IMG/VR virus record: IMGVR_UViG_3300036985_002432
Span: 28,213-92,212 of that record
From: a virus
DNA: 64,000 bases
Strand: one strand, 5' to 3'
This document shows positions 15,083-55,148 of this stretch, one piece after another. A program made the translations under genes and the position numbers. The first letter of the stretch is position 1, and each line of letters begins with the position of its first letter. The notes under the pieces are model-generated. The model worked only from the letters and a program-made list of their open reading frames with translations, did not search any database and had not been told where the DNA came from.

Positions 15083-15718
15083 ATGGCAACGTATTTACAG
15101 TCAAGTCCCGGAATATATAAAATCACTAGTATGACTAATGGTAAGATATATGTTGGTTGTGCTTCTAATGTAAGAACTAGAATAAATGGACATCTTTATG
15201 ATTTAAGAAGAGAAAAACATAAAAACAGTTATTTACAAAAAGCATGGCTTAAGTATGGTGAAGAGAGTTTTGTTTTTGAAATAATTGAAAAATGTGATAT
15301 AACTGATTTACATGTTAGAGAACACTATTGGGTTAATAAATTTAATTGTCTAGATAGATCTATTGGTTATAATCTAAAACCAACAGATCCTAATGGGTGT
15401 TCTATTCATTCTGAAGAAACAAAAGAAAAATTAAGACAAGCTAATAAAGGTAAAAAACCTTCAGCACTATGTATTCAAAAACTTAAAGAAAGAACTCTTT
15501 CTTCAGAACATAAAGAAATAATGAGAAAGTCAAGAGAAGGTATAGATTATACAAAATTACATAGAGAAAAAAGAGGAAAAAAGGTTATAGACCAATCAAC
15601 AGGAATTATATATACTTCATTAGCTGAAGTTTGTGAATTACTTGGAATAACTAAAGGTTCTTTTTCAAGAATACTATTAGGAAAAAGAAAAAATAAAACA
15701 ACTTTTAAATACTTATAA
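15083..15718 (+). mobile_element. Free-standing GIY-YIG homing endonuclease gene (NUMOD3-like and C-terminal NUMOD1/HTH-like DNA-binding domains)
   Basis: GIYKIT..IYVGCA..R...H motif, catalytic-type REHYW, HSEETKEKLRQANKGKK (NUMOD3-like), YTSLAEVCELLGI (HTH-like). Confidence 0.9.
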
Positions 15719-15720
15719 CC

Positions 15721-18700
15721 ATGGCGACCTATTTAAGTGGTGTGACAGATTATATACCACAGTTTCAACCCTTTCAACCGGATTTGAATTTCTATAATAA
15801 TGTGTTACAAACAAAGCAAACACAATATGATAGTAACTATAAACAATTAAATAAAATTTATGGTAACTATTTTTATGCTGATTTGACACATGGAGATAAT
15901 ATTCAAAGAAAAGAAGAACTGTTAAAAAATATTGATGTCAGCCTTAAAAAAGTATCTGGCCTTGATTTATCATTGGAACAAAATGTAACTCAAGCAACTC
16001 AAGTTTTTAAACCATTTTATGAAGATCAATATCTTATGAAAGATATGGCCTTTACAAAAAACTATACAGCACAAAGAAATAGAGCTGAAGGTTTAAAGAA
16101 TTCAACAGATGAAGAAAAACGTGGGATGTATTGGGCTGATGGTGTTGCTGCATTAGATTTTCAAAGAGAAGAATTTAAAGAATCTAATATAGGAGATACA
16201 CTTAATATGGCAAATGCTAGTTACACTAACTATATTAATGTTCAAGAAAAAGCAATGAAGTTAACTAAAGAAGCTGGTTTATCAATTGAATCAGTAGACT
16301 TTAGTACAGATGGTAAATATATTGTTACAACTAAAAATGGTGAACAGTTAATGGAACCATTAAGTAAATTACTTGAATCTCAATTAGGATCAGATCCTGC
16401 TATTCAAGAAGTTTATAGAACACAAGCCTATGTAAATAGAAAAACATATGCTGCAGGTAATGCTGCTCAATTTGGTGGTGATAAGAATGCTGCTGAAATG
16501 AAATATCTTGAGACTAACTTTAACATGCTTAAAGCTCAACAACAAAAAAGATATGAGTCATTACAAGATGATTCAAAATCATATGAATCTAGAATTAAAG
16601 ATATACAAAAACAAATTGATGCTGGTAGTAAAAATCCAGACTTACCTAAATCTTTAGCAAGTTTACAACAGGGTAAACAAATAAATGATGATGTACTTGC
16701 AAGAATACAAAAAGATAATGACTCTTTAAAGACAGATGAAAAAACTGCTACTACAACTACTGGATTTGTAAATCCTTATGGTGATATTAAATCATTAAGA
16801 TGGAAAGTAGATAATGCTATGGCATCAATTTTAATGGAAAAAGATCTTGATGAGTCAGCTCAAATATTTGCTTTTAGAGATGCTAAACAAAGTATGGTAG
16901 CAGATCCATTTGCAGTAAGTGCACAGAATCATTCATATAGAATGCAAGAAGTTGCTTCTGCTAATGCAAGTAGAGAAAGAGTTGCTGCTATTAATAATGC
17001 AGCTGCTGATAAAAGAGCAAAGAATACATGGGATTTAAGTACAGGTGCATATCATTATGATACAGAAAAATATATTAAAGATGCTAATGGTGATGATATA
17101 TTAAATCCTAATTATAATCAAGTTGTACCAAATGAATCTTATAGTAATACATTTAGTGAGTTTGAAGATAAAGATATTGCAACTGGAGAGATAAATGTTA
17201 AAAATTTAAGTAGAACAATTTCTCAAAGACAAACAGATCAATATGCTGTACCTTATATGCAACAGTCATTAGCTTTATTAGATAAGTTAGTAACAGAAGG
17301 TGTAATGACTAAAGATCAAGCTAACAAAATATTACATACTGAAAAAGATAAAACTATGACAATTGAGAAGTTCAATAAAGGACTTCAAGGTAATTCAGAA
17401 TATTTTTTAAGAAATACAGTAGGTACAAATAGTTTAACTTGGATTAATAAAAAATTAAATTGGTGGGTAAAAAATAATAAAAGTGTAAGTGCTATTACTA
17501 AAGATGGTATTCCTGGTTATTCAAAAGCAAATGCTGACTTTAATAATTACATAGGTTATCTTGATGAAGATAAGAAATGGAGAAAAGACAGTTCAAAATT
17601 AGTTGAAGATAAACTTAAGTCTCAAGGATTAAAAAATGCACAATATTTATATAAACCTGATGGAACATTAAGAAGTGAAGCTGAATTTATGAAAGTTCTG
17701 CCTAAAGAAAGTAGAGAAGCTATAAATAACAAAGCAAACAAAGCTGCCGTAGATTATCTTACAGGTTTTTCTTTTGATAAAACTTGGACAGGTATTAAAG
17801 AAATATCTAAAATAGCACTAGCTACAACTACTATGAATACAGCTCCAGCAGAACTTGCTAAGGCACTTGCTAATTTACCGGTTGCTCAGCGTGAAGCATA
17901 TAAAAGAAAAATTGAAGAAGCTAAAAAAGAAGCAGGAGGTTATGAAGCTTTACTAAGTGCAGCTGGTAAATCATATTCATCAGCAACTATGAAAAAAGTT
18001 CCACCAGGTATAAGTAGTATTGGTGAAATGAGTGGAGCTGGAGTATTTACTCCAAGTAGACAATCTATTAATGTAGCTCCATTAGCATTTGGTACTAAAG
18101 GAAATGGTTACTTTCATGAATTTGCAAGAGACTTTAGAAAAATAGATTTTGCAACATCTGGTATTAGCTTCCATGGAACAAGTAGTACTAAAGATACTGA
18201 TGCAGGTAAAGCAATGATAAATGCTATGATTTCAGCAATGAATGATACTAAAAGTAAATTTAAACCCTTTAAAATGAGTAGTCAAGCAATTGCTGGAGGA
18301 TCAAGTAATAAAGGTGCAATGATATTACATCCTGATGCCGAATGGTTACAAAATTATATGAAAAGTGAAAAAGGTACAGCTGGACTTATAACTGCAGATG
18401 ATTATAATGCCATATTAACAAATGGTATTAGTGTTGTAAGTGATTCAAAAAACTGGACAAATGGTTTATATACTTCATCTTATTTAGATCCACTTCAATC
18501 TGTTGTAGAATCTAATCCTAATGGTTATGAATGGAATGATCCTTATGGTAACTATAATATGAAGATTAAAAAGAATACAATGGGCACTGGTGATTATAAT
18601 ATTCAAAGAACTTATAGATTATTAAATCAAGAAACAGGACAATATGAAGAAGTTTCAACTTTAAATAATACTAGTGTAATTGGTAATAATTTATCTAATG

Positions 18701-27500: not shown

Positions 27501-30500
27501 TTACCCAGTATCAGTAACTGAAATGTTTGATGCATTATATCTTGCAAGTAAAGACCCAAGTCTATTAAATAAGTATAGTCCTTCTATAGACAATGTAATG
27601 TGGGATTTACTTAATAGAGGTGTAGAAAAAGTAAATGATAGAGATATAGATGTATTAACTAAACAAGAAGCCAACCTTATATCTAATAGTATTGATTCTA
27701 TTCTATCTGATTATGTAGATGCAAATCATGATGCTAGAGTTAGTAATGGTAAAGAAGTTACTAAGTCAGGTACATTAGTTTTATTATCAGAAGAAAAAGA
27801 TGCGGATGGTATTACTAATAGAAGCAAAGCCTATGGTTATGTTAAAGCTGTATTAGAAGATAAATTAGATGAGCTTAATGATGAGTTAGGTACAATAACA
27901 GATAAATCATTTAGTGAAATTAAAACTATAGAAGATCTAGAAGGTGAATCTATTGCTGTTATCCGTAGTAAATCAGGAGAAGATAAATATATATTCTTAA
28001 ATAGTCAAGTTGAAAACTTTAACAATTTAACTCCAGATATAAAACAAGGAGAAAGAGTTAAAGGAGAAAAGTATAAAGGATCAATTGAAATTATATCAGA
28101 TTTTTATAAGCATAATAATATCATAATAAATGATAAAAATGTAAGTATAATAGTTGTTAATGATGTTAGAGATGCTAAAGCTCAATTTGATAACTATGTA
28201 AAAGGTGGAGCTAAAGATTTTGTATCAATTGAAATAAAAGAAGATGGTCCTGTATATACAGACTTAACTTCTGACCAAGAAGATTTACTTGACAACATTA
28301 GAATCTTACAAAATACAATTAATAACTGGGGAGATGAGAAATCCGGAGTTATGAAATACCATGCTGATAATAGTAGATTTGACTTAATCCGTGAAAAGTA
28401 TATTGATGTAAACTATGGTGATGAAGAGTTAGATGAAGATGGTAATATTATAGATGAGACAGATGTTACAGATGGTAAAGATAGTGCTGGTATAGTTGAT
28501 AAAGCTGTAGGTAAAAAATCTGCTGAACAGTTTGCAGGTAAAGAAACATTATATATTGTTAAGAGTTTATTTAAAATTACAAATGGTAAAACAGTAGATA
28601 ATAAATTAGGCTTTAAAGAACTTGTAGATTTTAATAAAATTTGGGGAATACTATTAAGAGAAGTTGGTGGTGTTAAAAATAGAGAAGTTGCCTTTAATAA
28701 ATTAAAAGAAGCTTCAGTAACATATGCACCAGAATTAAAACAATTAGTAGAAAAGAAATTACCGGATCCAACTAAAATTAAACATACATCAGAATTTAAT
28801 GTAAGTGCTGCTTTCTGGCAAGATTTAAGTTTATCAGATATACCTTATACTCAATTAACTGCATTCCCTGTAAAAGAAATGCTTATAAATGAAGATACAG
28901 GATATCCAGAATCTACAATAACTGGGTTTACTATGGAAGTAACAGATGCTTCTATTGAACCAAGTAATGTTATAAGGGGTTTTCAAGCTACATTTAAAAC
29001 TATACAACCTGAAGATAATCCATACATCACTAAAGTAGATAACATAACTATGTTAACTAAACTAAATGCTTTAGTAAAAAACTATGAAGACAAACACAAT
29101 CCAGGTTCATTAAATATTAAAGGTTCTCTTGGATTTGCAAGATCAATTGGTGTATATTTAGATAACTTAGATGAAATAAAAAATGAATTAGAAACTAATT
29201 CTGAGTATTATGGTCTTCAATATATCTATCAAATTGTTAAAGATTTAGCTGATATACAAGCAAAACCATTTGGTGCTAGTGCAGATGCACAAAAAGTATT
29301 AAGAGACTTTGTAATTGATCCACTTGCTGTACTTAAAAGTAAAATACCAAAAGGTGTTATTAAAAGTCTAAAAGGTGTTGAAGTATATCAAAAAAATATA
29401 CTTGACAGACTAGCTGGATTACAAGCACAATTTGGATTAGAAACTAAAGGTAAAGGAGTATTTAATGCTGCTGGAGATATGGTCTTTCCTTTTGTACAAG
29501 ACTTTTCAGTATCAAGAAAAATTGATGCTTTAAACAGTGTTGAAAATCTTACTGATTGTTGGATTAAAGATGAGTTTAAATATATGAGATATTTAAATCC
29601 AACAATATCTAGCTTTACTAACTATTCTCAAATATTAAAAAGTGTATTTAACTATGAGACTGGTAAGATAGATGAAGGCCAAAAAGATAGAAGAAATGAA
29701 AGGTCATTAGATTTAAGCATGGTGTCAGGAACACAGGTTGCTGAATTTAATGAAGGTACAAATACATCTGACTTAGATAAATCAAGTAAGTTTTTACAAG
29801 AAATGCACACTATGTTAAAGGGTGGACTTCAAGAATTTATTAGAGCTGCAGGTAAGAAGACATCTATTGGTGTAAGAGTAAAAGGTGGTCTTATTAAAGA
29901 TAAAGGAAAAGACAGTAACTTGTATGTTGATGTTGACATGTTTGACAGTGAACAAACTGGAGACATCTATGCTGCAAATAAAATCCTTATGCCTTATATT
30001 GCTTCTGAGTTTGAAAGAATTCAAAAGTTTAAAAACAATAGAGAAGAATTTAAAAAGTATACAGGATACAATAGAAAAGTTGGAGGAACAAAAGAAAATC
30101 CTATATATGCAGGAGAAGTATTTACAGCATTTGATAAAGTATTAAAAGAAAAAACTAAAGAATTATTACTTAGTGAAGCTACTGTAAAAGGAGTAAATGA
30201 AACTCCAGGAGGATTAACAATTTATTTAAGAAAAAATACTGAACTAAGACAAAAAATTGAGAGTGATATCTTAGAATACTTTAATGAGCAAACATCAAGT
30301 AACTTAACTAATTTAGTAAACAATAAATACATTGATAAATCTTTAATTGAAAAAACTAATTCTCCAAATTTAACAGAACAAGAACAAGAGTACATGTTAG
30401 TTAAAGCATTTACTTATAATTCTTGGATACATAACTTTGAAACTGTAAATCTATTTATAGGTGAGATGTCACAGTTTAATCATGATAAAGAAAATCTACA

Positions 30501-50181: not shown

Positions 50182-50238
50182 ATATTTGTATTATATTTAT
50201 TTATTGTTCCATTTATTGGGAAACTGTTTAATGTGTGA

Positions 50239-51414
50239 TTACTTGACAGCCATTTTTACAACTGCGTTGTCTCTCATCATTGCTGCAAATTTTACTTTAT
50301 TGCCATTAACAATTTCTTTAACCATGAAATATCTCAAGTCATTAGTAAATGCATCACAATCTGTAGTAAGTTTTACTAATCTATCAATCATTGGAGCTCC
50401 AATTGCATTCTTTTCTGCATGAGTCAAACAATAGTTTACAATTCTAGTTGCAATTACACTTGATATATCTGCTCTAAATTCATCTCCAGAACCAACAGCA
50501 CTTGTTAAAGCACCTAAAACATAAGCTTCATTAACATTTGTTACTGCATCTTTTGGAGATATAATTTTATCAAGTTTATTATTGATAAACATAGTAAACA
50601 TACTTGAGAATTCTGGTCCAACAGAACCTTCACCAATCATTTGAATTAATGGTAACTCATCTTCAAACTTTTGAATAGAACTAATAGAGTTAAAGAAAGT
50701 AGTAATACTTCTTGGATTAACTCTTTGAGTTACTAATTCAGGATTCATCAATAAGAAATTTATACATCTACCATCAATGTTTACTGCTTCTGCCCATCTT
50801 GCCCATACATTAACATCAAATTTAACCTCAACTGAAACAAATCTAGTTTTCTGTGCAACATCTAAAGAAGTTACATTATAATCACCATTGTCTGGATTAG
50901 AAGTTAAGATTACATGCCAGTTTTTTGGAAGACTCCAAGAAATATATTCTTGTCTGTCTATTAATTCCATTGTAGCTTGCATAAATCTATGATCAGCTCT
51001 TGTATAATCATCTAGGATAAGAAATCCACCTTCTGTTTGACCTTGAATCCATTCAGGAGCAGCATGTGACATACGGCTTTGATTAGTAGGTCTATATTTA
51101 TTTTTGATATAAGTTTCCATTAAAGTTTCTTGTACCCAAGTTACTTTACCATCTTCTCTAATCATCTCAAATTCTTTAAACGGGAAACCAATTAAGTCAC
51201 CCAACTCTTCTATCTGTGATAGATTTAATTTTACAACTGACATACTAAGTTCATTAGCAAGTTGCATTAAAGATGAAGTCTTACCAAGACCTGCATCACC
51301 TTCAATATTTACTGCAACTGGCACTTTACCTTGTGCTTGAATATACTGGTTATTATTAACCATGTGCTTTAAATAACCTTTTAATTCATCTACGTTTAAT
51401 TGTACTTGACTCAT
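50239..51414 (-). CDS. MoxR-like AAA+ ATPase
   Basis: Walker A GDAGLGKT, Walker B LILDDYTRA, LTSNP sensor, NPRS motif; neighbouring vWA gene. Confidence 0.85.
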   Translation of the reverse strand: MSQVQLNVDELKGYLKHMVNNNQYIQAQGKVPVAVNIEGDAGLGKTSSLMQLANELSMSVVKLNLSQIEELGDLIGFPFKEFEMIREDGKVTWVQETLMETYIKNKYRPTNQSRMSHAAPEWIQGQTEGGFLILDDYTRADHRFMQATMELIDRQEYISWSLPKNWHVILTSNPDNGDYNVTSLDVAQKTRFVSVEVKFDVNVWARWAEAVNIDGRCINFLLMNPELVTQRVNPRSITTFFNSISSIQKFEDELPLIQMIGEGSVGPEFSSMFTMFINNKLDKIISPKDAVTNVNEAYVLGALTSAVGSGDEFRADISSVIATRIVNYCLTHAEKNAIGAPMIDRLVKLTTDCDAFTNDLRYFMVKEIVNGNKVKFAAMMRDNAVVKMAVK

Positions 51415-51424
51415 CTTTCTTTTT

Positions 51425-52165
51425 TTATAGTTCTAATTTAATTACTTTTCCCTTACACTTAAATCCATGTGTAAGAGCTTTTCTAACTGTGCCTTCATTG
51501 GCATTAATATATACAGCTGCTTCTTTTATACTATTAACCTTAATCTCAATTCCTTGATCAATAATTATAAGATTTTTAACAGTCCGGGGATTTCTTTGTC
51601 TTTTAGAAATACATTGAATTGTATTTAGTTTTTCTTTTTTCCATTGATATCCACTAGCAGATTTAATATCTCCTTTTGCAGCATCTCCTATAGATGTAGC
51701 ATTTCCATTAATAGCTAAAGCAGCTTTTCTTATTGTATCATATTCATTTACATAATTACCATCCAAAGTATACTGATATACTTTTATTGAAGCATGATTT
51801 TCTTTACCTAACCTTTTATTTGTGTTAGCCATACTTAACTTTTTTCTTGTTTCAACACTTTTTGCATGTGTTACAGGATTCCTTTCTACATTTACATCAC
51901 AATTATAGTATTCAATATAATAAGCTTCTCTTTCTATGTAATTATCACAAATTTCAATAAGTTTAAAACTAATATCATTGGGATACTTATCATAAATTCT
52001 TTGTAAAAAACTATTATAATGTTTTCCTTTTCTTAATACAAGTACATGTTGCTTATACCTTTCATATAAACTAATACTGCTTCCAATATATTTGTGAGAA
52101 TTACACTCAATAATATATACCCCAGATTTTCTAACTAAATCTTCTTTTAATGTTAATAATTTCAT
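51425..52165 (-). mobile_element. Free-standing GIY-YIG homing endonuclease gene with NUMOD1-like repeats
   Basis: GVYII..YIGSS..R...H, REAYYI, two NUMOD1-like units (VYQYTLDG..Y.TIRKAA; SIKEAA); ATG at 52165. Confidence 0.9.
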
Positions 52166-52168
52166 ATA

Positions 52169-52176
52169 CAAATATA
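52169..52176 (-). promoter_or_regulatory. Bacteroidota-type -7 element TATATTTG for the GIY-YIG gene
   Basis: TATATTTG-TAT-ATG; only 3 nt before the start codon. Confidence 0.65.
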
Positions 52177-52194
52177 CATATAAAAAATGTGATC

Positions 52195-52211
52195 AAGTAA
52201 TTAAATTAGAA
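52195..52211. repeat. 17-bp perfect inverted repeat of 51431-51447
   Basis: AAGTAATTAAATTAGAA (52195-52211) is the reverse complement of TTCTAATTTAATTACTT (51431-51447). Confidence 0.95.
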
Positions 52212-53408
52212 TTAAAGTTCAAGTTTTATAACTTTTCCCGGAAGTTCCGTGTTTAATTCTGATTGTTCAGAAATTACCCATAATACGGGTGCTTTTGGTT
52301 TAACATCTGCTGTACATTCACCATCAGTAAAATATACTAAACTTGTATATTTCCGCAGATTCTCATTATAATATTCCAAAACTGGATCAAATTCAGTACC
52401 GCCTCTGCCAGATATAGCAATGCCTCCAAATTTACCAGTATATTCTTTTATACTTTGTATTACAGTATCACATTGAATTATAGTAATACCAACTCCAGAC
52501 TTATGAATATGATGTATCTCATTCATAAATTCTTTAAGTTCTTGATCACTTACAGATCCAGAAGTATCAATAGCCAATAACATATGTTGCCTCATCTTAA
52601 TCTTAAGACCCGGATTATCTGTATATCTTCTATTTTCTTTTCTTCTAATCTTCTTAGTAAATACTTTTGTGCTAACACCAGTAAACCTACGGATATAACT
52701 TTTCCAGTCAAACTTAGGCTTTTCAATCTTATCCATTTCAAGTAGATAATCACTCAATTCTCCAGGTATATTACCTCTTTTCTTTTGAGTCATTTCTGCT
52801 GCATGTTTTAACAGAGTATCTACTTGTTTATTAATTAACTTTTGCTCAGCTTCAGATAAATTAGCAAACTCATCCCATGTAGGATGATCTGATGGGTATC
52901 CATCTTCAGAATCCATTTGATCACATAATTGATCAAAGTTTGCATCTCCAGATGTACCATTTTTATCTTTTTCTTCTTTAGCTTCACTAAGTTTATCATA
53001 ATAATATCTAGTACCTGCTTTAAGATCAAGATTAAGATCTGGATAATCTTCAATCATAATACCACCTTCAGGTAGTAAGTGAGATAGAATATACTGATTA
53101 ATCTCCATATCCATAGCTGTATTAGCTAATTTTCTATCAGAATACTTATGGTGTTCTGTAAGATGAAAGAAAGCAATATGTAATAGCTCATGTTTAAGTA
53201 ATCCAAATTTATGGTCATCACTAAGTGTTTCCCAAAACTCTGGATTTATAGCCAACTGGTAATTAATACCATTTTTACTTACTCCGGCTGTAGGAACAAC
53301 TCTTTTGTTCCATATTTTATTTAACATTATCAGTAAAAAACCATAAAATGGCTCAGCCAAAATAAGATTTTTACTTATCTTGGCTAAAGAATCTTCTTTA
53401 CTCTGCAT
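52212..53408 (-). CDS. DUF2201-type metallopeptidase-vWA domain protein
   Basis: HELLH zincin motif, MIDAS DTSGS, GRGGTEF and YFTDG; partner of the MoxR-like ATPase. Confidence 0.88.
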   Translation of the reverse strand: MQSKEDSLAKISKNLILAEPFYGFLLIMLNKIWNKRVVPTAGVSKNGINYQLAINPEFWETLSDDHKFGLLKHELLHIAFFHLTEHHKYSDRKLANTAMDMEINQYILSHLLPEGGIMIEDYPDLNLDLKAGTRYYYDKLSEAKEEKDKNGTSGDANFDQLCDQMDSEDGYPSDHPTWDEFANLSEAEQKLINKQVDTLLKHAAEMTQKKRGNIPGELSDYLLEMDKIEKPKFDWKSYIRRFTGVSTKVFTKKIRRKENRRYTDNPGLKIKMRQHMLLAIDTSGSVSDQELKEFMNEIHHIHKSGVGITIIQCDTVIQSIKEYTGKFGGIAISGRGGTEFDPVLEYYNENLRKYTSLVYFTDGECTADVKPKAPVLWVISEQSELNTELPGKVIKLEL

Positions 53409-53826
53409 TATCTTTAAGTTTTGTAATTATTTCAAACTTGTCAGTAGGATATCCCCATGCATCCATAATAGACATCAAGTGTTTATTATGAAAATCTAAA
53501 AACAATAACATAACTTCTTTATTAGCTTTGTGAGTAATTAGTTTATGAAATACTACAGGCATACTTGGTGTACCAATATTTTTTAAATCTGAGCTCTCTA
53601 ACATTTTAATTGACTCAAGATATTTTATCATCTTTGGACAATTTTGTTTCCATTCTTCTGGAGTTACATTTACAAATTTATACAATACATATATTGCATC
53701 TGAAGATCTTTTAATATCAGAATTTTCAATGGCCATAAAAGCCATATTTCTATTATCTTCTTCTTGTGAATTTAGCATCATTCTTAAGTTTATTACTTCT
53801 TCAGTTCCTATTATTACTTTACTCAT
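53398..53826 (-). CDS. Hypothetical protein
   Basis: 142-aa ORF, TAATG-coupled. Confidence 0.75.
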   Translation of the reverse strand: MSKVIIGTEEVINLRMMLNSQEEDNRNMAFMAIENSDIKRSSDAIYVLYKFVNVTPEEWKQNCPKMIKYLESIKMLESSDLKNIGTPSMPVVFHKLITHKANKEVMLLFLDFHNKHLMSIMDAWGYPTDKFEIITKLKDNAE

Positions 53827-54017
53827 TAGTCTTCAATTTTTAATCCTTCTTCATCTAAATAATATAAATCCATTAATGTACCATTTAAGTCCATCATAAC
53901 CATATATGCAGGATTATCTGTATCAACAGCATCCATGTCATAATTACTTTCTAAAAGTTCTATAGCTTCATTAATTAAAGCTTCTACTTTTTCTCTAATT
54001 TGTTCTACTCTTTCCAT
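53826..54017 (-). CDS. Hypothetical acidic protein (63 aa) flanked by 19-bp direct repeats
   Basis: ORF track; repeats at 53824-53842 and 54015-54033. Confidence 0.75.
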   Translation of the reverse strand: MERVEQIREKVEALINEAIELLESNYDMDAVDTDNPAYMVMMDLNGTLMDLYYLDEEGLKIED

Positions 54018-54079
54018 TAGTCTTCTATTTTTAGTGTTTTAATCATCCATTCTGTGGGTGTATTTATATTATCCACCCA
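54017..54079 (-). pseudogene. Orphaned 3' end of the DUF6915-like gene (WVDNINTPTEWMIKTLKIED*)
   Basis: Manual translation matches the C-terminus of 55149-55496 (WVTMIASGKLESWAIKTLKIED*) and still overlaps the next ATG (TAATG). Confidence 0.8.
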
Positions 54080-54092
54080 TCTTATTCTGATT

Positions 54093-54299
54093 TTATCCAC
54101 ATTGATATTGTTCTCCATTTTGTGCAATAGCATCTAATACTCTAAATAAAGGAACCAATACAGTACCATTGGTATAGACTTCTTCTTTATCTTTAAAGCT
54201 ATAATTAATTATAAAATCAATAATCTTAAGTTGATCATCTGTCATACCAACTAATCTGCTTTTTACAGATATATCATTTTTTATTTCTTCTTTTTCCAT
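54093..54299 (-). CDS. Hypothetical protein flanked by 17-bp direct repeats
   Basis: Probable start ATG 54299 (MEKEEIK; ATG 54317 is the alternative); repeats at 54077-54093 and 54296-54312. Confidence 0.7.
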   Translation of the reverse strand: MEKEEIKNDISVKSRLVGMTDDQLKIIDFIINYSFKDKEEVYTNGTVLVPLFRVLDAIAQNGEQYQCG

Positions 54300-54334
54300 C
54301 TTATTCTGATTTATCATTTCTATTTAATATTATT

Positions 54335-55087
54335 TCAAAATAAATTATCATGAATAGCCTTTATCCATGTTTTAAATTCTGCAAGTGTCATCTTACCTTT
54401 ACATCTATTACATTGTTTACAACAAGCAACACAGTTTTCCTTATTATATCCAATAGTATTATCTACTCTATCTATCCCATTATAATAAAACGGAACACCT
54501 GATCTAACTTTTTTAGTTCTAGCATCTAATATTTGATATAACTGAGAAGGTTGTCTATTACAATAAGTACAATTATTAGAACTGATATTAATTAATTCAT
54601 CAAGTGTTAATTTAAAATCAAGTTCTCTTTCTTTTGCATGATAAACATATGATCTATACAAACCTTTATAACCAGTAAGTATGTTTTTTTTATTTTCAAA
54701 AGGAAAACATGGAGATTTACCACAAGTTCTTGTATTCCCATTTATAACAGCACTGTAAGGAAGCCATTTTTGATCTCCACATTCACATTGCACATGTAAT
54801 AAAGTGGATGTCTTATTATCTTTTTTAACACTTTTTCTACCAAGATATATAAACTTTGTAGGATCTCCATGTTTACTATAAAGTTTTTGATTTAATTCAA
54901 ATTCTTTTCTAGTAACTGCAGCTTTACCTTTCTCATATATCTTATTAAGATTATTTCTTTTAACAACTCTTTCAATGATACCTCTTTTTAAACTTTCTTG
55001 TTTTGCAAATGCCAACATACTAAGTGAACTGTTTAAATATTTGGTAATCAACTGTTTTTCTTGCTCTGAACCAGGAAGTATTTTCAT
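54335..55087 (-). mobile_element. Free-standing HNH-type homing endonuclease gene
   Basis: CECG..G.TRTCG motif, CTYC, NGIDRVDNTIGY..NCVACCKQCNRCK; ATG at 55087. Confidence 0.85.
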
Positions 55088-55118
55088 AATTGTAATTGTT
55101 ATATATTTATATTTTATA

Positions 55119-55126
55119 CAAATATA
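55119..55126 (-). promoter_or_regulatory. Bacteroidota-type -7 element TATATTTG for the HNH gene
   Basis: Exact TAnnTTTG match in the intergenic gap, 31 nt upstream of the ATG. Confidence 0.6.
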
Positions 55127-55148
55127 CAAATAAATATAACTAAAACAA

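Follow-up and report, generated by a model that had tools for sequence, protein, structure and literature searches.

We analysed a 64,000-nucleotide (nt) stretch of viral DNA, positions 28,213 to 92,212 of the IMG/VR virus record IMGVR_UViG_3300036985_002432 (hereafter the window), and found an element inserted at the 3′ end of a phage gene for a DUF2201/vWA protein (hereafter the vWA gene). The element is very probably a free-standing, intron-less homing endonuclease cassette of the GIY-YIG/NUMOD1 type, which occupies the last codons of this gene. It brought a synonymously recoded replacement for the gene end, and the original end now serves as the C-terminus and stop of the endonuclease. The anatomy of the locus, the polarity of its two gene ends, the presence/absence polymorphism of the element and its recent horizontal spread are established by comparison with related viral alleles. 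The genome is phage-like (92 kb, 30% GC; N4-like relatives of the vWA and ATPase proteins; IMG/VR viral contigs).

Two spellings of one gene end

On the minus strand of the window, the vWA gene (52212-53408, 398 amino acids) encodes a metallopeptidase-like N-terminal domain and a VWA-like domain (DUF2201_N and DUF2201; Pfam PF13203 and PF09967), and its protein ends ...ELPGKVIKLEL*. It is followed by the open reading frame (ORF) of the endonuclease, listed as 51425-52171 from a TTG at 52171 and probably starting at the ATG at 52165 (246 amino acids), whose product ends ...KCKGKVIKLEL*. The vWA gene closes with GGA AAA GTT ATA AAA CTT GAA CTT TAA and the endonuclease with GGA AAA GTA ATT AAA TTA GAA CTA TAA. 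These two ends differ at five of 27 nt, every difference being synonymous, and a repeat search placed them in a 28-nt direct repeat of 82% identity (51425-51452 and 52212-52239). When the whole 92-kb genome was scanned for identical termini between adjacent same-strand ORFs, this eight-residue pair was the longest, followed by MATYL and LKIED with five residues each.

The vWA protein has approximately 600 relatives in IMG/VR. Our sample consists of 93 distinct unoccupied alleles and seven occupied ones, the latter being the window and six IMG/VR loci found by protein similarity alone, independently of any sequence signature. All 93 alleles without the endonuclease end the vWA gene in G(K/Q/H/R)(V/I/T)I(K/R)LE(L/I)*, usually spelled GTA ATT AAA TTA GAA CTA/CTT/TTA TAA. 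In most of them, the ATPase ATG stands 8-20 nt after the vWA stop, behind an A-rich spacer, and approximately ten have a small unrelated ORF in between. The six further occupied loci carry an endonuclease homologue (60-87% identity) at the same position, and the element is thus present or absent at one fixed site. All seven occupied alleles share one anatomy: a vWA end of the form CTT CCN GGA xxx GTK ATH ARA CTT GAA CTT TAA, a conserved spacer, a 246-amino-acid endonuclease ending HG(F/H)(K/R)CK plus the eight-codon tail, and then the local spacer and the ATPase gene. The signature CTTGAACTT is present in 7/7 occupied and 0/93 unoccupied alleles (Fisher p = 6e-11). A pattern search with this signature returned 18 loci, several of them on contigs already in the sample; 16 could be read through, and all 16 have the same layout. 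They comprise 13 distinct sequences, giving 14 distinct occupied alleles including the window. No match to the locus was found by blastn against 50,697 GenBank phage records, and the protein-level relatives in GenBank phages (N4-like phages, less than 30% identical) are not usable as empty alleles.

The two spellings differ in a consistent way. At the positions where empty alleles favour TTA (87/93), ATT (74/93) and GTA (54/93), the cassette copy always has CTT, mostly ATA or ATC, and GTT or GTG but never GTA; TTA usage in the long ORFs of the window is 61%. The positions that are always changed lie inside a near-palindromic core, GTAATTAAATTAGAA, which is the best-conserved stretch of the empty alleles.

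On the vWA tree, empty alleles stand as very close sisters to occupied ones and identify the native copy. L078 shares its downstream copy and spacer without any difference with the empty sister L117, and first departs from L130 after the ATPase start; its upstream copy shows approximately ten synonymous differences from both, extending back to the Leu-Pro codons. The endonuclease of L087 closes with ...KLEI* and then AAAATTAAAAAAGATG, matching the empty allele L018 exactly at this point, and the vWA gene of L087 itself ends ...KLEL* in the cassette spelling. Endonuclease tails likewise reproduce other variants specific to the host lineage (Q in L149 and H in L123, besides KLEI in L087), and the upstream copy travels with the endonuclease, always as ...CTT GAA CTT TAA. 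Since the downstream copy follows the host lineage and the upstream copy follows the cassette, the host's original gene end is now the endonuclease tail, and the vWA gene owes its present end to the cassette. An exact empty site is found in L001 (93-96% DNA identity to the window), whose 28 nt at 2014-2041 align to both window copies.

That the polarity is reversed, the peptide being native to the endonuclease as a NUMOD1-type C-terminus (or matching by chance or convergence) and acquired from it by the vWA gene, is scarcely credible. NUMOD1-type modules do usually end in G-(Y/F)-x-W-(K/R), akin to G-K-V-I-K, and the 36%-identical protein P0035, for which a scan of viral contigs gave no usable locus, ends ...CKGFKLQIQLN. 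Yet all 93 unoccupied alleles already carry the peptide end, and the vWA tail belongs to the conserved domain, because the Pfam alignment of the DUF2201 profile reaches residue 397 of 398. Furthermore, the peptide is not an ending of more distant GIY-YIG/NUMOD1 proteins, which close in G(Y/F)xW(K/R)... (...GYIWKRNKE and ...GYKWKFKEN are cases), and the host variants KLEI, Q and H are copied in endonuclease tails.

The original prediction, made from the letters of the window alone, had claimed that the two genes share their last residues in different synonymous codons, that the downstream copy is ancestral, and that the element inserted with a recoded end and reads into the native end and stop, keeping the spacing to the ATPase gene. 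It had also expected empty relatives to end in the peptide ahead of the ATPase gene and unrelated NUMOD1 proteins to end otherwise. The allele comparisons bear out all of these points, apart from the length of the recoded stretch, which had been put at eight codons and extends over approximately 10-13.

Mobility and make-up of the cassette

Occupied alleles are scattered over the vWA tree, on which the occupied state changes at least five times. Between L166 and either L168 or L161, the endonuclease DNA is 96.9-97.1% identical, whereas the vWA 3′ flanks are 75-78% and the ATPase 5′ flanks 67-70% identical. Other loci with flanks of 82-94% identity have endonuclease DNA that is 100% identical, and for the window and L173 the endonuclease DNA is 90% identical against 69% and 74% for the flanks. 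The highly identical block has sharp boundaries, running from approximately 40 nt before the vWA stop to approximately +758, the first codon of the native tail. A defined block has thus spread horizontally and recently, which is homing. Where the window and L001 differ, the differences concentrate in the approximately 40 nt flanking the insert to either side, the pattern expected of short co-conversion tracts.

The distribution on the vWA tree alone cannot separate gains from losses, and one could picture the endonuclease as an old vertical resident that was lost many times and is not currently mobile, with the duplicated end as a fossil of one ancient event. Unoccupied L002, L111 and perhaps L001 (GTT ATA) look like hybrids of cassette and native sequence, as a repeat-to-repeat deletion would leave. 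Such a history is nevertheless very improbable: it is contradicted by endonuclease DNA that is 97-100% identical between immediate flanks of 67-78% and by the sharp block edges, and it does not fit the behaviour of the copies, the downstream one tracking the host lineage and the upstream one the cassette.

The mobile cassette is free-standing. Only 46 nt separate the vWA stop from the endonuclease ATG and none follow the endonuclease-specific part; the host ORF is already closed where the endonuclease begins with a start of its own. Rfam gave no match over 50200-53500, even at E = 1, and since there is also no space for an intron core, the element is free-standing and not part of an intron. 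A group I intron was considered as a candidate; it is excluded at the window locus by Rfam and was not found in the split ATPase gene of L001 described below.

Read along the minus strand, the cassette-borne, recoded vWA end (52212-52244) opens with CTT CCG ahead of the GGA-to-TAA codons given above and contains the upstream arm of the direct repeat (52212-52239). The cassette spacer (52166-52211), near-identical across occupied alleles, follows, with the motif TATATTTG directly before the endonuclease start. The endonuclease-specific coding part (51452-52165) comprises, from Pfam, AlphaFold2 (AF2) and Foldseek, a GIY-YIG catalytic domain, a linker and two NUMOD1-like modules of the form beta-beta-alpha-alpha-beta, and ends ...HGFKCK. 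The native last eight vWA codons and stop (51425-51451), which match empty alleles in host-lineage codons, form its C-terminus GKVIKLEL* and the downstream repeat arm. A native A-rich spacer, AAAAAGAAAG (51415-51424), leads to the ATPase ATG at 51414, 10 nt after the endonuclease stop; A-rich spacers of 8-20 nt stand here in most empty alleles, and L003 and L005 have AAAAAGAAAGC at the same spot. The downstream gene (50239-51414, 391 amino acids) encodes an AAA/MoxR-like ATPase with weak Pfam AAA_5 and NACHT matches, and ATPase relatives of 73-86% identity lie directly downstream of the vWA gene.

A promoter scan found no sigma-70-type promoter upstream of the endonuclease, and the sole terminator-like site is on the opposite strand. 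TATATTTG (52166-52180, minus strand, just before the endonuclease ATG) resembles the Bacteroidota -7 promoter motif TAnnTTTG. This resemblance and the A-rich spacers, which are poor in Shine-Dalgarno sequences, may point to a host among the Bacteroidota.

The endonuclease has Pfam matches to GIY-YIG (PF01541, 28.4 bits against a cut-off of 22.6) and NUMOD1 (PF07453, 43.5 bits, above cut-off), and G15, Y17, Y26, G28, R36, E78/E80 and N92 are invariant among 30 homologues. The AF2 model has a mean predicted local distance difference test score (pLDDT) of 83. In Foldseek, its N-terminal domain matches the I-TevI catalytic domain 1ln0 (E = 2.6e-5, template modelling score of 0.81 on the target, 32-34% identity). 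The model contains two predicted beta-beta-alpha-alpha-beta modules, at residues 129-176 and 199-244, which are also marked by a 39-nt internal DNA repeat (51496-51534 and 51700-51738); the first is a clear NUMOD1 match. KVIKL of the host-derived tail is predicted as a strand (240-244) in the place taken by YQWK (173-176) in module 1, and the borrowed tail is thus predicted to complete the last beta-strand of the second DNA-binding module. The endonuclease lineage comprises 33 protein clusters (61-91% identity), every one of which ends in xxVIKLE(L/I); 32 are 246 amino acids long and one is a 135-amino-acid fragment. The resemblance of the host tail to the canonical G(Y/F)xW(K/R) strand may explain why fusion to host codons was tolerated. 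Gly, with which the tail opens, never varies in vWA proteins, whereas several endonuclease tails have E, K, D or S in its place, as expected if this codon now serves the endonuclease alone.

A third, inverted copy of the native target core (52195-52214) was found by the repeat search and by DNA search. It overlaps the vWA stop codon and opens the cassette spacer. It is complementary to the native tail (51428-51447) at 19/20 positions, with a perfect 17/17 over 52195-52211, and its opposite strand spells GTA ATT AAA TTA GAA TTA, the native VIKLEL codons. The inverted copy is part of the cassette: all occupied alleles have it as TTC(Y)AATT(W)(W)ATTAC, and it does not covary with the local native copy. 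Two RNA structures were tried and rejected. A local hairpin between the recoded copy and the adjacent inverted copy at the vWA end folds no better than shuffled sequences (z = -1.13), and the arms of a long-range stem between the inverted copy and the native tail do not covary (17/17 pairs in the window, approximately 12-15/17 elsewhere, poor in L087). The lack of covariation and the unremarkable local RNA folding favour a role at the DNA level. I-TevI represses its own promoter through an operator that resembles its homing site, with 15/20 identity (PMC2988022), and by analogy the inverted copy may be an operator of the endonuclease.

Accessory genes have a hotspot in the vWA-ATPase gap. It is occupied in L021, L071 and L104, in L027 and L069, and also in L106 by other small inserts, 166-197 nt long; they hold two unrelated families of ORFs of approximately 60 amino acids, one of them Cys-rich (CCxC...CCxxC). 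We considered these inserts as endonuclease remnants and rejected this, since they are small unrelated ORFs.

A proposed homing mechanism and the role of recoding

The mobile block extends from approximately 52250 to 51452 on the minus strand and consists of three parts: a synonymously recoded copy of the last approximately ten codons and the stop, which leaves the vWA protein unchanged; the spacer of approximately 46 nt that opens with the inverted target-core copy; and an endonuclease ORF without an end of its own, running into the host's original last eight codons and stop. Because the endonuclease reads into the native end and stop, the native junction of stop, spacer and ATG to the ATPase gene is left untouched. 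We propose a mechanism in which the NUMOD1-like modules would read the conserved near-palindromic core GTAATTAAATTAGAA of an empty allele, and the catalytic domain would cut close to the codon junction between Pro and Gly, at the boundary of the block. An occupied genome would then serve as the repair template, and the cassette would be copied into the cut allele. In a carrier, the upstream copy would have the left half of the target with a recoded core, and the downstream copy the native core with endonuclease codons on its left; with the target split in this way and no full target left, the carrier would be immune. The divergence between the two repeats may also disfavour deletion by recombination. 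An I-TevI-like CNNNG motif is present at the Pro-Gly junction (CCNGG) in all empty alleles; since CNNNG follows from the codons there and CATGG also lies 15 nt upstream of the downstream copy, we draw no conclusion on the cleavage motif.

Several points weigh against this account. We infer from sequence where the enzyme would cut, that the recoding would confer immunity and that the inverted copy may serve as an operator. The native core is intact in the downstream copy, so that immunity requires recognition or cutting to depend also on sequence to the left of the Gly codon. The NUMOD1 match of the C-terminal module (E = 0.012) is below the cut-off, and the pLDDT over the tail is only approximately 67-72. 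The pattern search was conditioned on the signature and therefore adds nothing to the association test. Finally, four unoccupied alleles (L002, L111, L015 and L104) have partial cassette spelling, CTT CCN GGA ... AAA CTT GAA/GAG, and CTT, GGA and GTT are ordinary codons here. These four and the empty L001, which has GTT ATA within 2014-2041, may be footprints of endonuclease loss through repeat recombination, resistant alleles, or the source lineage of the recoded end.

The same partly recoded alleles bear on whether the recoding is an adaptation at all. The upstream copy might simply be the naturally diverged end of the lineage in which the cassette was founded, hitch-hiking by co-conversion without making its carrier immune or guarding it against deletion. 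Homing normally co-converts flanking DNA (PMC2988022), and the inserted C-terminus of fungal mitochondrial mobile ORFs has been interpreted as foreign donor DNA (PMC3630166). We regard passive hitch-hiking as unlikely, while giving it more weight than the two alternatives considered above. GGA, CTT GAA CTT and TAA are invariant across occupied alleles whose endonucleases are down to 60% identical in protein, whereas other third positions vary. The changes fall on the positions that are best conserved in empty alleles, all of them within the palindromic core. In addition, each recent transfer has taken the recoded stretch along, which is expected if recombinants with a native core beside the left half were recut.

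Other gene termini, known systems and significance

The original prediction had further described the vWA locus as the mirror image of the MATYL case, and had proposed a recurrent strategy at gene termini in this phage. The mirror-image description holds. At 15083-15750 on the plus strand, a 211-amino-acid GIY-YIG ORF holds the native leader and first six codons (MATYLQ; ATG GCA ACG TAT TTA CAG) of a 1012-amino-acid virion gene, which now starts with a respelled ATG GCG ACC TAT TTA 2 nt after the endonuclease stop. The same leader before the virion gene in empty alleles (L176 and approximately 30 others) confirms this, and L175 is a second occupied allele. Recurrence is thus supported by both empty and occupied alleles at 15083 and is seen in outline in a third case, at 54017-55148 on the minus strand, where a 264-amino-acid ORF (no Pfam match; HNH-like, as read from its Cys pattern) and a 74-amino-acid ORF lie between genes of 115 and 63 amino acids. 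Downstream of these two ORFs, a native end ...NTPTEWMIKTLKIED* is stranded at 54017-54100 in no long ORF; it matches the end of the 115-amino-acid gene in empty relatives, and the 115-amino-acid gene of the window has the other allele type, ...WAIKTLKIED*. The 74-amino-acid ORF lies between the two copies of a 17-nt direct repeat, AAATCAGAATAAGATGG (approximately 54296-54312 and 54077-54093). In the same region, two successive minus-strand gene junctions (53826 and 54017) share the end LKIED* with overlapping stop and start TAATG, which could be another duplication or a reused coupling signal.

The ATPase gene is uninterrupted in the window. It is split exactly at D141/H142 (window numbering) in L001 (2055-4654), and also in L004, L007-L009, L014, L029, L038 and L078, into two ORFs, the second with an added starting Met. 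Between the halves lie a 249-amino-acid GIY-YIG ORF (approximately 35% identical to the window endonuclease) and a 148-amino-acid ORF with a LAGLIDADG-like motif.

The layout at the vWA gene is known in kind from fungal mitochondria and is a new variant in phages. Mobile endonuclease ORFs (mORFs) forming 'gene hybrids' have been described in atp6 of Allomyces macrogynus, in atp6, atp9, cox2 and nad3 of Glomus sp., in atp6/cox2 of Phlebia radiata and in rps3 of Ophiostoma (PMC3630166, PMC4019555). In both settings, an endonuclease ORF (LAGLIDADG or GIY-YIG in fungi) lies inside the 3′ end of a host gene, with an inserted C-terminal copy upstream and the native C-terminus stranded downstream. 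The inserted copy is diverged in DNA, through synonymous differences, and near-identical in protein, the native copy matches element-free relatives, and spread is by endonuclease-driven gene conversion. Unlike fungal mORFs, the cassette resides in a phage and not in a mitochondrion, its duplication covers only 8-13 codons and is wholly synonymous, and it has an extra inverted copy of the target. Whereas the native end is a dead remnant in the fungal cases, here it is translated as the terminus of the endonuclease, provides its stop and preserves the junction with the following gene, and the endonuclease has its own start without in-frame fusion to the host gene. No homology to fungal mORFs was shown, so the cassette works like an mORF and is not a member of that group by descent.

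Among phages, intronless homing is known for the free-standing endonuclease genes of T-even phages (Seg, GIY-YIG; Mob, HNH; PMC2988022, PMC2330249), which the T4 review places between genes or overlapping the upstream ORF by 1-24 bp (PMC2988022). The vWA cassette resembles T-even intronless homing in that a free-standing phage GIY-YIG endonuclease lies between conserved genes, is sporadically present, co-converts its flanks and has a carrier that is presumably protected by differences in the target sequence. In the text of the T4 review, we found neither a host gene end that is duplicated or recoded nor an endonuclease terminus made of host codons (PMC2988022). With I-TevI, the endonuclease of the T4 td intron, the window enzyme shares a matching catalytic fold and the order of catalytic domain, linker and helix-turn-helix DNA-binding region, and the inverted target copy ahead of it is like the I-TevI operator, this role being assigned by analogy. 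Unlike I-TevI, it is not intron-encoded, and it has two NUMOD1-like modules with no zinc finger demonstrated.

Gene division by an endonuclease insertion is known from nrdA of Aeromonas phage Aeh1, which is split by mobE. Like that insertion, the cassette is an intron-less endonuclease insertion in a coding region that leaves host function intact, and the split ATPase gene of the relatives shows the same. Unlike nrdA, which is translated as two separate pieces, the vWA gene stays whole by means of its spare end. Our literature search found no description of this layout in a phage, within a coverage that was incomplete and does not prove absence. Particular to the present case are the very short, wholly synonymous duplication, the translation of the native end as an endonuclease terminus, the inverted third copy and the unusually clear allele states.

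It is possible, and we put it forward tentatively, that terminus swapping is a co-adapted, general intron-free route for phage endonucleases, in which a recoded end would confer immunity, native codons would supply fold and stop, and an inverted copy would act as an autoregulatory operator. Three unrelated cassettes in one 92-kb genome (two GIY-YIG and one HNH-like) follow a common logic, at the starts as well as the ends of genes, which suggests that annotation overlooks a widespread class. For annotation, short duplicated gene ends beside endonuclease genes are homing footprints, and a foreign end on a host gene can distort phylogenies and recombination analyses. The target is narrowed to approximately 30 bp with natural candidate immune variants, which makes the specificity of an I-TevI-like enzyme with two NUMOD1-type modules directly testable. 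The locus also raises the questions of whether synonymous recoding is selected for immunity and whether a homing-site copy at the start of an endonuclease gene acts as an operator. The natural population data, which cover empty, occupied and recently transferred states, show how an endonuclease can reside in a phage coding gene without an intron or intein and without harm to that gene.

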